Positions 26,888 through 52,730 of a stretch of 64,000 bases of DNA are shown piece after piece (positions within the stretch are counted from its first letter, which is position 1; every line of letters starts with the position of its first letter). The notes under the pieces were generated by a model. The model searched no databases. It saw nothing but the letters and a program-made list of their open reading frames with translations, and was not told where the DNA came from. Source of the DNA: Eledone cirrhosa (lineage: Eukaryota); NCBI GenBank assembly GCA_964016885.1, contig OZ024764.1, positions 8,680,001 through 8,744,000 of the forward strand. Direction: 5' to 3'. The translations under genes were made by a program, and so were the position numbers.

Positions 26888-29668
26888 GTGTAACTTTGTT
26901 GAAATAACTATTTACTGGGACAAATGTAGGGTTAGAAGACAGGGACATTGTGTAACTTTGGAGAGAAATAACTATTTACAGGGACAAATGTAGGGTTAGA
27001 AGACAGGGACATTGTGTAACTTTGGAGAGAAATAACTATTTACAGGGACAAATGTAGGGTTAGAAGACAGGGACATTGTGTAACTTTGGAGAGAAATAAC
27101 TATTTACAGGGACAAATGTAGGGTTAGAAGCCAGGACCTTGTGTAACTTTGGAGAGAAATAACTATTTACAGGGACAAATGTAGGGTTAGAAGACAGGGA
27201 CATTGTGTAACTTTGGGGAGAAATAACTATTTACAGGGACAAATGTAGGGTTAGAAGACAGGGACATTGAGTAACTTTGGGGAGAAATAACTATTTACAG
27301 GGACAAATGTAGGGTTAGAACTCAGGACCTTGAGTAACTTTGGGGAGAAATAACTATTTACAGGGACAAATGTAGGGTTAGAAGACAGGGACATTGTGTA
27401 ACTTTGGGGAGAAATAACTATTTACAGGGACAAATGTAGGGTTAGAAGCCAGGACATTGTGTAACTTTGGAGAGAAATAACTATTTACAGGGACAAATGT
27501 AGGGTTAGAAGCCAGGACATTGTGTAACTTTGGGGAGAAATAACTATTTACAGGGACAAATGTAGGGTTAGAAGACAGGGACATTGAGTAACTTTGGGGA
27601 GAAATAACTATTTACAGGGACAAATGTAGGGTTAGAAGCCAGGACATTGTGTAACTTTGGAGAGAAATAACTCTTTACAGGGACAAATGTAGGGTTAGAA
27701 GACAGGGACATTGTGTAACTTTGGGGAGAAATAACTATTTACTGGGACAAATGTAGGGTTAGAAGCCAGGACCTTTAGTAACTTTGTTGAAATAACTATT
27801 TACAGGGACAAATGTAGGGTTAGAACCCAGGACCTTGAGTAACTTTGGAGAGAAATAACTATTTACTGGGACAAATGTAGGGTTAGAAACCAGGACCTTG
27901 AGTAACTTTGGAGAGAAATAACTATTTACTGGGACAAATGTAGGGTTAGAAGCCAGGACCTTGAGTAACTTTGGAGAGAAATAACTATTTACAGGGACAA
28001 ATGTAGGGTTAGAACTCGGGACCTTGAGTAACTTTGGGGAGAAATAACTATTTACAGGGACAAATGTAGGGTTAGAACCCTGGACCTTGAGTAACTTTGG
28101 AGAGAAATAACTATTTACAGGGACAAATGTAGGGTTAGAACCCTGGACCTTGAGTAACTTTGGAGAGAAATAACTATTTACAGGGACAAATGTAGGGTTA
28201 GAACCCTGGACCTTGAGTAACTTTGGAGAGAAATAACTATTTACAGGGACAAATGTAGGGTTAGAACCCTGGACCTTGAGTAACTTTGGGGAGAAATAAC
28301 TATTTACAGGGACAAATGTAGGGTTAGAAGCCAGGACCTTGAGTAACTTTGGAGAGAAATAACTATTTACAGGGACAAATGTAGGGTTAGAAGACAGGGA
28401 CATTGTGTAACTTTGGGGAGAAATAACTATTTACAGGGACAAATGTAGGGTTAGAAGCCAGGACCTTGAGTAACTTTGGGGAGAAATAACTATTTACAGG
28501 GACAAATGTAGGGTTAGAACTCGGGACCTTGAGTAACTTTGGAGATACATAACTATTTACAGGGACAAATGTTGGGTTAGAAGCCAGGACCTTGAGTAAC
28601 TTTGGGGAGAAATAACTATTTACAGGGACAAATGTAGGGTTAGAAGCCAGGACCTTGAGTAACTTTGGGGAGAAATAACTATTTACAGGGACAAATGTAG
28701 GGTTAGAAGCCGGGACCTTGAGTAACTTTGGGGAGAAATAACTATTTACAGGGACAAATGTAGGGTTAGAACCCTGGACCTTGAGTAACTTTGGAGATAA
28801 ATAACTATTTACAGGGACAAATGTAGGGTTAGAAGCCGGGACCTTGAGTAACTTTGGGGAGAAATAACTATTTACAGGGACAAATGTAGGGTTAGAACCC
28901 GGGACCTTGAGTAACTTTGGGGAGAAATAACTATTTACAGGGACAAATGTAGGGTTAGAAGCCAGGACATTGTGTAACTTTGGGGAGAAATAACTATTTA
29001 CAGGGACAAATGTAGGGTTAGAAGCCAGGGACCTTGAGTAACTTTGGAGATAAATAACTATTTACAGGGACAAATGTAGGGTTAGAAGACAGGGACATTG
29101 TGTAACTTTGGAGAGAAATAACTATTTACAGGGACAAATGTAGGGTTAGAAGACAGGGACATTGTGTAACTTTGGGGCGAAATAACTATTTACAGGGACA
29201 AATGTAGGGTTAGAAGCCAGGACCTTGAGTAACTTTGGGGAGAAATAACTATTTACAGGGACAAATGTAGGGTTAGAACCCTGGACCTTGAGTAACTTTG
29301 GAGAGAAATAACTATTTACAGGGACAAATGTAGGGTTAGAACCCGGGACCTTGTGTAACTTTGGAGAGAAATAACTATTTACAGGGACAAATGTAGGGTT
29401 AGAAGCCAGGACCTTGAGTAACTTTGGGGAGAAATAACTATTTACAGGGACAACTGTAGGGTTAGAAGCCGGGACCTTGAGTAACTTTGGGGAGAAATAA
29501 CTATTTACAGGGACAAATGTAGGGTTAGAAGCCAGGACCTTGAGTAACTTTGGGGAGAAATAACTATTTACAGGGACAAATGTAGGGTTAGAAGCCAGGA
29601 CCTTGAGTAACTTTGGGGAGAAATAACTATTTACAGGGACAAATGTAGGGTTAGAAGCCAGGAACTTG
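26888..29668. repeat. 63/64-bp minisatellite, about 44 copies
   Basis: Unit gtaactttggagagaaataactatttacagggacaaatgtagggttagaag(a/c)cagg(g)ac(a/c)ttg(t/a). Confidence 0.97.
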
Positions 29669-31686: not shown

Positions 31687-31743
31687 TATTAGTATACGTA
31701 TTTCAAGAGTACTAATATTTAAGTACTCTTTCGTCAGATAAAA
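31687..31743 (-). ncRNA. Type I hammerhead motif (family A relic)
   Basis: Minus strand: CTGACGA-AAGAGTACT..AGTACTCTT-GAAAT-ACGT-ATA; stem I is degraded. Confidence 0.55.
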
Positions 31744-43136: not shown

Positions 43137-43415
43137 CGTGCGTGTCTGTGCGTATATATATATATTTATATATATATATGTATGTTTGTATGCATATATA
43201 TATATATATATATTTAATATCATTGTATATTATACTCGAGAAAACTTGTTGAGTGCTCTGAATCAGTTATAAACAATTATATTTGTTGAATTACCAACAA
43301 ATTGAATATCCCTTTTGGTTATATATATATAACTATGAAGCTTGTGCCCTTCCTATCTACGGTTAGCTTTCCTCTTTGTTGTTTACTTGTCTCACTCGCT
43401 TTACGCGTTTTAATT

Positions 43416-43516
43416 GTCCTAATAACTTAATTTAGTTATTATTGCACCCACGTGAGGTATATGATTTTTAATGCAATGAAATATCTATGATCGTTGGCAA
43501 ATCACTGATGAGGGAC
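43416..43516 (+). ncRNA. Candidate non-circularly permuted hammerhead ribozyme, copy 2 (diverged, compensatory changes)
   Basis: GTCC TAATAACT taattt AGTTATTA TTGCA CCCACG tg AGGTAT A TGATTT ttaa TGCAA T GAA ATATCT atgat CGTTGG c AAATCA CTGATGA G GGAC. Confidence 0.62.
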
Positions 43517-43571
43517 TCATTTTATAACATGTTATCCATGTGCAACCTGCAGTATTCTTCTCCCCATTTTT

Positions 43572-43616
<45 letters not shown>

Positions 43617-44225: not shown

Positions 44226-44511
44226 AAATACAAATATTAATAAAATAGATGTTCCTTTGATCAATTACATTTTATTATACATATTTCAGATGTACAACAG
44301 TACGTCCTCATCAGACAAAATATAATGATACAAGACATTACCCTGAGATTTTAAATGGTTAAGATTTAATCAAGGTAGTATTTAACATCTCAGGGTATGT
44401 CATGTATCATTATATTTTGTCTGATGAGGACGTACTGTTGTACATCCGAAATATGTATAATAAAATGTAATTGATCAAAAGAACATCTATTTTATTAATA
44501 TTTGTATTTTT
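44226..44511. mobile_element. Fold-back element with an HHR in each arm (44269-44321 minus, 44414-44466 plus)
   Basis: About 125-bp inverted arms. Confidence 0.8.
44414..44466 (+). ncRNA. Type I hammerhead motif
   Basis: ATTTTGT-CTGATGA-GGACGTAC tgtt GTACATCC-GAAAT-ATGT-ATA-ATAAAAT. Confidence 0.82.
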
Positions 44512-44719: not shown

Positions 44720-45625
44720 TAAAAAATTTATTTAAGAATTTTGAGAGGTTTGCAAAAACTATTAATCCTTTCATTACTAACATTTTGGTTCATTTATGAA
44801 ATTTTTTGGAAGATTTTAATTTAAAGGAAACTCTGTATTTCAATTAATCGATTAAACATTTTGAGGGATTTACTAATGAAATTATTATTTTATTACTAAG
44901 ATAGTAACTTAACATGGTTCTTATATAAAATTATGTTGGAAAATTTAAATTTAAACAGGAACAATGTATTTCAATTAATTAATGAAACATTTTGAGAGAT
45001 TTACTAAAATTATTAATTATTTCATTACTAAGACATTAACTTAACATATGGTTCTTATATAAAATTATGTTAGAAGATTTAAATTTGAATAGGAATGCTG
45101 TTTTCAATTAATTAACGAAGTATTTTGTGTGATTTACTACTAAGATTAATTATTTTATTACTAAGACAGTAACTTAACATATGGTTCTTATATAAAATTA
45201 TGTTGGAAGATTTAAATTTAAATAGGAACACTATTTCAATTAATTAACGAAGTATTTTGAGGGATTTACTACTAAAATTAATTATTTTAGTACTAAAATA
45301 GTAACTTAACATATAGTTCTTATATAAAATGATGTTAGAAGATTTAAATAGTAACACTATTTTAATTAATTAATGAAAAATTTTCAGAGATTTACTAAAA
45401 CTATTAATTATTGCAAGATAACAACTTAACATACAGTTCTTATATAAAAGTATGTTGGAAGGTTTTAATATAAATAGTAACACTATATTTCAATTAATTA
45501 AAAAAGAGTTGTTTATTAAAAAAGAGTTGATTAAAATTATTATTTCATTACTAAGATAGTAACTTAACATGTGGTTCTTATATAAAATTATGTTGGAAGA
45601 TTTTAATTTAAAGAGGAACACTTTC
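44720..45625. repeat. About 130-bp AT-rich diverged tandem repeat, about 7 copies
   Basis: actaagatagtaacttaacatatggttcttatataaaattatgttggaagat recurs. Confidence 0.85.
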
Positions 45626-49405: not shown

Positions 49406-49838
49406 AAAGTTCTATTTAAAGTTGTTGGGATACAACAAGTAAATATTTTTATAACTGATATAAAGCACTCGACAAATTTTTGGAGTAGATATACGATATT
49501 AATAAATGGAAACTATATTTATAAAACCATATTTATTTCATTATACATATTTCAGGGATACCACATTAAATTAAGGTATGCCTTCATCAGACAAAATACA
49601 ATATATAACAGTTTTACAAATAGGTTTGACGTACCCTTTTAAAATACAACCATTACTATCCAGACAGCCTCCAAAAGTAATGGTTGTATTTTAAAAGGGT
49701 ACGTCAAACCTATTTGTAAAACTGTTATATATTGTATTTTGTCTGATGAAGGCATACCATAATTTAATGTGGTATCCCTGAAATATGTATAATGAAATAA
49801 ATATGGTTTTATAAATATAGTTTCCATTTATTAATATC

Positions 49839-49842
<4 letters not shown>
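49402..49842. mobile_element. Family A fold-back element (HHRs at 49536-49596 minus and 49737-49797 plus)
   Basis: About 165-bp inverted arms plus tail on the left; in (TA)n. Confidence 0.85.
49737..49797 (+). ncRNA. Type I hammerhead motif
   Basis: TTTTGT-CTGATGA-AGGCATACCATA..TGTGGTATCCCT-GAAAT-ATGT-ATA-ATGAAA. Confidence 0.8.
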
Positions 49843-51069: not shown

Positions 51070-52264
<1,195 letters not shown>

Positions 52265-52319
52265 TTTCTGCTGCTTAAACCATTTTGTTTGTTTACCCTA
52301 GCGTCCCCTTTATTTACGT

Positions 52320-52421
52320 GTCCCAACGTCTTTTTTTTAGCCGTTGCTCGCACCAACCTGAGGTATATGGCCTTTAATGCGACGAAATGCCTACGACGGT
52401 TGGATGGCCACTGATGAGGAC
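52320..52421 (+). ncRNA. Candidate non-circularly permuted hammerhead ribozyme, copy 3
   Basis: GTCC CAACG..CGTTG c TCGCA CCAACC tg AGGTAT A TGGCC tttaa TGCGA C GAA ATGCCT acgac GGTTGG at GGCCA CTGATGA GGAC. Confidence 0.62.
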
Positions 52422-52476
52422 GAACTTTTTCATATGTAACCCATTTGCAGCGCCGCAGTTCCATTATTATCATATT

Positions 52477-52530
<54 letters not shown>

Positions 52531-52533
<3 letters not shown>

Positions 52534-52726
52534 CGAAGGAAATGTGGTAAGGAACCAGGTGGACCATAACGCACCAAAGTACTCAATACTTGAGGTAGTA
52601 GAGTGGGTAATAGGAACCAGTAAGACCCCGACAGCTGAGCTCAAGCCGTTTCGACGGCTAATTCTGGACTAGTCCAGAATTAGCCGTCGAAACGGCTTGA
52701 GCTCAGCTGTCGGGGTCTTACTGGTT

Positions 52727-52730
<4 letters not shown>
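52531..52730. mobile_element. Family B hairpin element
   Basis: Perfectly palindromic apex ctggactagtccag. Confidence 0.88.

Follow-up and report, generated by a model that had tools for sequence, protein, structure and literature searches.

Non-coding tandem repeats of Eledone cirrhosa carry a predicted hammerhead motif in S-G-C order with co-varying helices

Hammerhead ribozymes whose blocks follow the order S-G-C, a non-circular permutation named SGC, were described in 2023 by Eckert et al. and were found only in metatranscriptomes (PMC10085705). So far this order comes from virus-like environmental RNAs, on contigs with unknown hosts, and short SGC constructs (about 80 nt) are able to cleave in vitro. 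In some of these ribozymes, the ends of stem III and of the stem I-II interaction helix are directly linked though they lie far apart in the crystal structure (PMC10085705). In the CC-licensed PMC and bioRxiv literature, type SGC occurs in this one paper, and among the matches listed there for non-circular permutation, and for retrozymes or hammerheads of octopus or cephalopods, no SGC family in a cellular genome is described.

The hammerheads of animal retrozymes are of type I (Cervera and de la Pena 2020; Li, Clavereau and Pollet 2026). Meanwhile, Penelope-like elements are found as inverted copies with a tail on one end (Craig et al. 2021, 10.1101/2021.04.23.441226), an arrangement traced to two start sites of reverse transcription (PMC11167929). 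For one Penelope element, hammerhead cleavage was dispensable for insertion in vitro (PMC11167929).

We analysed a window of 64,000 nucleotides from the genome of Eledone cirrhosa, which measures 3.0 Gb and is rich in microsatellites. Within positions 43416-43516 of the window the hammerhead blocks follow each other as cleavage site, GAAA and CUGAUGA, that is, in S-G-C order. Block S consists of the stem III 3' strand, AUA and the stem I 5' strand; block G of the stem II 3' strand, GAAA and the stem III 5' strand; and block C of the stem I 3' strand and CUGAUGA. In the 64 kb this three-block pattern is found three times; 100 shuffles never produced it. The copies and the parts of the motif are as follows:

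18908..19393, - strand: third copy, subfamily C (~630-bp monomer); motif 19027-18926, predicted cleavage 3' of A18981; short 3' end
43329..43584, + strand: 5'-truncated copy of a ~530-bp non-coding tandem-repeat element, subfamily A; 98% to the monomer of locus L032; 3' end in (TA)n
52260..52490, + strand: second copy, subfamily B (~620-bp monomer); motif 52320-52421, predicted cleavage 3' of A52367
43416..43419, + strand: P0 5' strand GTCC; partner GGAC at 43513-43516; closes the whole motif inside stem II
43420..43441, + strand: 8-bp hairpin (43420-27/43434-41; 8/8 paired), inserted at the stem II junction
43442..43446, + strand: distal stem II 5' strand TTGCA; partner TGCAA at 43472-43476
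43447..43452, + strand: stem I-II interaction helix 5' strand CCCACG; partner CGTTGG at 43492-43497; one mismatch
43453..43455, + strand: predicted kink-turn, non-bulged strand (3n U, G2n, A1n), after the consensus in PMC4382518 and PMC5689011
43456..43467, + strand: block S, with stem III 3' strand GGTAT, H17 = A43461 and stem I 5' strand TGATTT (43462-67)
43472..43485, + strand: block G, with stem II 3' strand, N11.1 (T43477), GAAA (43478-81) and stem III 5' strand
43486..43491, + strand: predicted kink-turn, bulged strand (3-nt bulge TAT, G1b, A2b, 3b U)
43492..43497, + strand: stem I-II interaction helix 3' strand CGTTGG
43499..43516, + strand: block C, with stem I 3' strand AAATCA (43499-504), CTGATGA (43505-11), N10.1 (G43512) and P0 3' strand GGAC
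43517..43575, + strand: 3' region, the longer of two 3' ends (putative Penelope-type tail), then (TA)n

Read as H17 of the AUA triplet, A43461 fits hammerhead numbering, and cleavage is predicted 3' of it. The repeat has the block order S, G, C and the core CUGAnGA, GAAA and UH that define type SGC, and order and full core are common to it and to HRIMA-1 and the SGC variant of PMC10085705. The linker between stems I and II is short in both (4 nt containing UAA here, UA/UUA-like in the variant alignment of that paper), and in both the I-II helix directly precedes the stem I 3' strand. However, CUGAnGA is not directly followed by a stem II strand in the repeat. In the published SGC ribozymes, CUGAnGA has the stem II strand and the I-II partner after it, at the 3' end, whereas here these two lie at the 5' end and are bridged by an extra helix and the hairpin (PMC10085705). 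Only N10.1 after CUGAUGA can pair into stem II (24 of 36 representative copies), and beyond it the strand pairs with the 5' end as GGAC/GUCC; the remainder of stem II and the hairpin are supplied from the 5' end, and the chain opens inside stem II. The SGC ribozymes described in PMC10085705 lack such an exit from stem II one base after CUGAUGA. HRIMA-1 leaves the ends of stem III and of the I-II helix open, whereas here the predicted kink-turn connects the two on both strands, and by eye there is no sequence likeness to the SGC ribozymes of PMC10085705 outside core and linker. Since block C is interrupted, we file the repeat as an SGC-order variant and not as a member of HRIMA-1. We infer that its stems I to III, as well as its I-II helix, are arranged as in the type-SGC ribozymes of that paper.

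All helices that the initial annotation had named are present in the window, some with corrections. The one-mismatch helix CCCACG/CGTTGG stands, but the change at C43449 is private to the 43.4 kb copy: 31 identical subfamily-A cores read CCAACG/CGTTGG and are fully paired. AGGTAT/ATATCT (43455-60/43481-86) had been given as a paired stem III, of which five base pairs hold, whereas the outer A-U pair is not conserved (A.A in 48 and A.G in 11 of 197 copies). Stem III is therefore counted as 5 bp, because the outer A-U belongs to the kink-turn-like loop. A clean four-way junction free of linkers had also been proposed. The linker between hairpin and stem II has 0 nt in 50 copies, 1 nt in 127 and 2 nt in 20 (197 copies), and the 10.1-11.1 pair is standard in 24 of the 36 representatives, with A.A or C.A in several subfamilies; the clean junction is thus a feature of subfamily A but not a general one. 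The hairpin of the 52.3 kb copy, annotated with 5 bp, actually has 8 bp with one mismatch.

Rfam matched no hammerhead family on the stretch 43416-43516 alone, and over the 64-kb window the best 150 of 562 matches were only microsatellite-driven hits of the miRNA type. Nested folding of the motif, a method that excludes pseudoknots, gave weak z-scores of -0.5 to -1.6 and did not recover the full structure. Folding of circular monomers gave z-scores from -0.35 to -5.25, inconsistent among the five monomers (15 shuffles each).

The motif is abundant in the genome. Patterns of the core with exact spacing gave 12,313, 2,272 and 957 non-overlapping matches, against 3, 0 and 0 in the controls, the first figure being that of the three-block pattern and its control of 3 that of the reversed pattern. 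Together these patterns count no fewer than 15,500 copies whose core is intact (controls 0-3). The spacing of the blocks is fixed to the base, with 1,265 matches at standard spacing versus 5 with one extra base. Meanwhile, identity between the monomers of different subfamilies ranges from 54 to 91%, and the whole monomers of the subfamilies of the 43.4 kb and 52.3 kb copies are about 61% identical.

A search whose pattern omitted the core returned 10,753 matches (subfamily B being excluded by spacing), and among 30 copies sampled from it 29 had GAAA and 28 had CTGAYGA. GGTATA, annotated as invariant, is so among the three window copies but not genome-wide, where GGTATC occurs in 2,272 copies and GAGATATA in 957. 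Hammerheads tolerate A or C at the cleavage-site base, as the NUH rule states. At H17 we counted A in 12,313 copies, C in 2,272 and G or U in 157, with patterns that differ by one fixed base. The other recurrent core variant is N7, which is U or C. The recurrent variants of the core are those that hammerhead catalysis tolerates. Among the matches listed for the 957-copy group, a stem III pair that is G-C or G-U elsewhere has become A-U in most, and this pair has passed from G-C through G-U to A-U. A young subfamily of the GAGATATA form occurs at G000:C1:325369268-325372837 in arrays of up to eight units with a spacing of ~496 bp, and these arrays are the best candidate for a currently active master. 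A further diverged subfamily (e.g., G000:C1:204959989), which lies outside the alignments, has TTGTCT in stem I and CCCCAG as I-II strand, and also A-U at the same stem III pair as the GAGATATA group.

The carrier units provided insights into the mobility of the motif. In 34 monomers measured, the units are 493-648 bp long, arranged in tandem and non-coding, with one ribozyme motif each; the longest ATG frame has 142 aa and is not common to the subfamilies. In these respects they resemble animal non-LTR retrozymes (PMC7229834; preprint 10.64898/2026.07.22.740005), which are likewise non-coding tandem monomers of low GC with one hammerhead per unit and high copy number, and both are likely non-autonomous partners of Penelope-like elements. 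They differ in the ribozyme, which is of type I in the animal retrozymes and S-G-C here, and the type I descriptors used in those two studies would miss the S-G-C order. This suggests that retrozyme surveys using type I, II and III descriptors miss whole families.

Copies are truncated at the 5' end and end in (TA)n either ~10-20 or ~50-70 bases after the core. Among 34 inverted pairs, 25 combined a short with a long 3' end, six were long/long, one was short/short and two were not scored. Inverted truncated copies, a tail on one end and a (TA)n target together make up the signature of elements mobilised by Penelope proteins, and partial tandems are a further likeness to Penelope-like elements (10.1101/2021.04.23.441226; PMC11167929). 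Unlike Penelope-like elements, the repeat has no reverse transcriptase or GIY-YIG frame, and its hammerhead is not of the minimal type I form. Matches to Penelope-like proteins were found in 23 of 282 loci, and in the 20 of these that also held the core, (TA)n always lay between the two. The element is therefore regarded as non-autonomous. None of the 282 loci held a frame with reverse transcriptase and GIY-YIG joined to the ribozyme, nor an autonomous partner, including one with a common 3' end. Pfam searches of four neighbouring frames gave only a weak GIY-YIG match, in one of them. Narrow family-specific patterns had no match in metagenome, viral or prokaryote genome contigs. The monomer is covered by contigs of runs X4 and X1, which as contigs cannot show ends or level.

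Truncation points near the predicted site were also counted. The five positions up to the site held 5' ends of 461 copies, compared to 2,238 in a window of 21 positions (the patterns differ), which indicates no gross enrichment of 5' truncations there. At single positions with C or G flanks we found 75 at the site versus 22, 10 and 48 at controls, where C at -1 is inflated by AUC subfamilies; with G flanks only, counted by eye among the matches listed, there were ~25 versus 8, 6 and 10, figures confounded by TG microhomology. In a single inverted pair, at locus L194, both copies start at the base after the predicted cleavage site.

The joint between stem III and the I-II helix displayed a conserved motif of its own. 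There, 5'-NGA-3' stands opposite 5'-NAYGAN-3', giving a 3-nt bulge followed by G.A and A.G. This motif matches the standard kink-turn (Kt-7, box C/D; PMC4382518, PMC5689011) in the bulge and the tandem G.A/A.G pairs, in C:G at -1b:-1n (36 of 36 representatives) and in a 3b.3n pair that is Watson-Crick in none of 197 copies; a kinked fold is accordingly a prediction from sequence. C:G at -1b:-1n is the usual pair of kink-turns and favours ion-induced folding (PMC5689011). All four G.A positions are intact in 184 of the 197 copies, and these positions were absent from the patterns used to collect the copies. In a tree of the copies, the four positions have no changes on subfamily branches, versus nine for the bulge and 14 for 3b/3n. 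The difference from the kink-turns in PMC4382518 and PMC5689011 is that the predicted one sits inside a hammerhead-type motif, and in the CC-licensed PMC and bioRxiv literature we found no description of a kink-turn within a hammerhead. How the far end of stem III is linked to the I-II helix is a question left by PMC10085705; the predicted kink-turn, which would make this link on both strands, is a concrete answer.

Paired changes were evaluated at two levels. Among 36 hand-picked representatives, 92.5% of cells pair, two-sided changes occur at 18 of 36 pairs, and the covariation score is 0.302 versus at most 0.095 in slid controls, in which pairing drops to 27-50%. Two-sided changes affect five of the eight hairpin pairs and five of the six pairs of the I-II helix, while P0 swaps G-C for A-U in eight representatives. 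Distal stem II has four conserved base pairs and one two-sided change, its fifth pair being broken in 21 of the 36. Stems I and III both pair and co-vary, among the representatives and in the tree test below. By raw mutual information, predicted pairs rank 2-5, 9 and 10, and seven of the top ten column pairs are predicted pairs or the same hairpin change, many high ranks reflecting shared ancestry.

The paired changes might also have arisen simply because a few repeat subfamilies share ancestry: two or three copies give few independent events, and the column-shuffle control on the 36 representatives ignores kinship. Because of the latter, changes were mapped on a tree. For this, 226 cores were collected, 214 of them with the 5' part, and 197 were anchored; the patterns behind this sample contained the core, and rare subfamilies were over-represented in it on purpose. 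On branches leading to at least three copies, 31 of 40 changes keep pairing, and eight changes are two-sided, against a mean of 0.30 and a maximum of four in 5,000 for a re-pairing null; the I-II helix contributes three double changes on inner branches. On single-copy branches only 62 of 217 changes keep pairing. This test keeps relatedness, and both its excess of two-sided changes and the sharp difference between inner and terminal branches contradict shared ancestry as the source, which we consider extremely improbable. Correlation of the paired changes, which the initial annotation had wanted checked in a larger alignment, thus persists across the 197 copies. Pairing is kept far more often on subfamily branches than on single-copy ones, so selection has acted on a few master copies, and inserted copies such as the one at 43.4 kb decay neutrally, the C43449 mismatch being an example of such decay. 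The same contrast supports the earlier proposal that structure, not sequence, was selected in the source elements. We conclude that the RNA structure is genuine and was under selection, and we class the motif as a variant of SGC hammerheads and of retrozymes.

Since paired bases change together between subfamilies, the repeat is predicted to cut its own RNA. We consider it probable that this non-coding repeat of 493-648 bases, with more than 15,000 copies and an S-G-C hammerhead core with co-varying helices, would cleave itself 3' of A43461 and would likely reduce tandem transcripts to monomers, which would be copied back into (TA)n by Penelope-like proteins. In the proposed life cycle, the motif would fold as a monomeric SGC-like hammerhead cutting after H17; the kink-turn joining stem III to the I-II helix would seal the ends that are open in published SGC ribozymes, and the chain would open inside stem II through the GTCC/GGAC helix and the hairpin. 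Tandem transcripts would then release monomers, possibly circular by analogy with animal retrozymes, and Penelope-like proteins acting in trans may insert these into (TA)n by target-primed reverse transcription.

Another conceivable case is that the catalytic core assembles from two neighbouring units, as a domain-swapped dimer that would restore type II-like connectivity instead of a monomeric SGC knot. Units do occur in tandem, hammerheads of axolotl retrozymes cleave better as dimers (PMC7229834), and nested folding of the monomer prefers P0, the hairpin, the I-II helix and stem III, leaving stems I and II unformed. Yet the near absence of matches with one extra base between blocks and the conserved short linkers fit a compact local fold, and SGC constructs as short as ~80 nt are active in vitro (PMC10085705), so that we regard the dimer as unlikely. 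Quite unlikely, in our view, is a structure that was selected but is weakly catalytic or no longer so, and which would serve the mobilising reverse transcriptase in protein binding or in recognition of its template. The non-canonical 10.1-11.1 pairs in successful subfamilies, the lack of a clear pile-up of 5' ends at the site and the dispensability of the Penelope hammerhead for protein-assisted insertion (PMC11167929) would agree with such a role. However, the only recurrent core changes are those tolerated by catalysis (N7; H17 as A or C, with G and U at ~1%), and there is no evident reason for a binding site to obey the NUH rule. A retroposed RNA like box C/D snoRNAs, whose CUGA/UGAUGA boxes mimic a hammerhead, is suggested by the three best Rfam matches of the stretch, all C/D snoRNAs, and by the kink-turn of this kind that C/D boxes form. 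Those matches score 14-19 bits (E 0.43-1.8), where the gathering scores lie at 65-85; the subfamilies do not share the aligned "C box"; and a snoRNA would have no use for stems I and III or for the NUH rule, which makes this origin very improbable.

For the self-cleaving S-G-C repeat, a stronger reading is that of an active, independently evolved caged hammerhead, in which stem III is locked to the I-II helix through the kink-turn, and a hairpin junction stands in for most of proximal stem II. No earlier ribozyme family with a non-circular permutation would then be known to reside in the genome of a eukaryote, and we put this reading forward tentatively, as a possibility close to evenly balanced. 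If true, the kink-turn explains how SGC ribozymes join two distant helix ends, and a host protein of the L7Ae family may tune the cleavage of a 15,000-copy retrozyme. More than 15,000 copies in a cellular genome bring non-circular permutation into retrotransposon biology, and the family offers a large set of natural variants whose phylogeny can be read. Tolerance of non-canonical 10.1-11.1 pairs, and of a junction that lies one base away from the core, would broaden the known hammerhead rules.

Other repeats lie beside these copies. Fold-back elements occupy window positions 3520-3870, 4040-4330, 4560-4700 and 49500-49840, and by eye their arms look like minimal hammerheads of the classical type I, with CTGAYGA, a long stem II, GAAA and a very short stem III. 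CTGATGA contexts like those of the arms occur near 31737, 32099, 39718 and 44314-44421. These type I-like fold-back elements are probably non-autonomous Penelope derivatives. Penelope-type neighbours in the same loci also appear to carry type I-like motifs. A Penelope-like 3' end with a hammerhead-like motif CTGAAGA...CGAAA, ending in (TA)n, was seen at loci L039 and L044 (minus strand, 3' of the GIY-YIG frame) and near position 18454 of the window. Another abundant short repeat forms fold-back pairs in (TA)n at 12620-12740, at 52533-52730 and in many loci, and often adjoins the ribozyme elements. Minisatellite arrays with periods of 51, 63 and ~132 are found at 13585-15334, 26901-29668 and 44778-45622.
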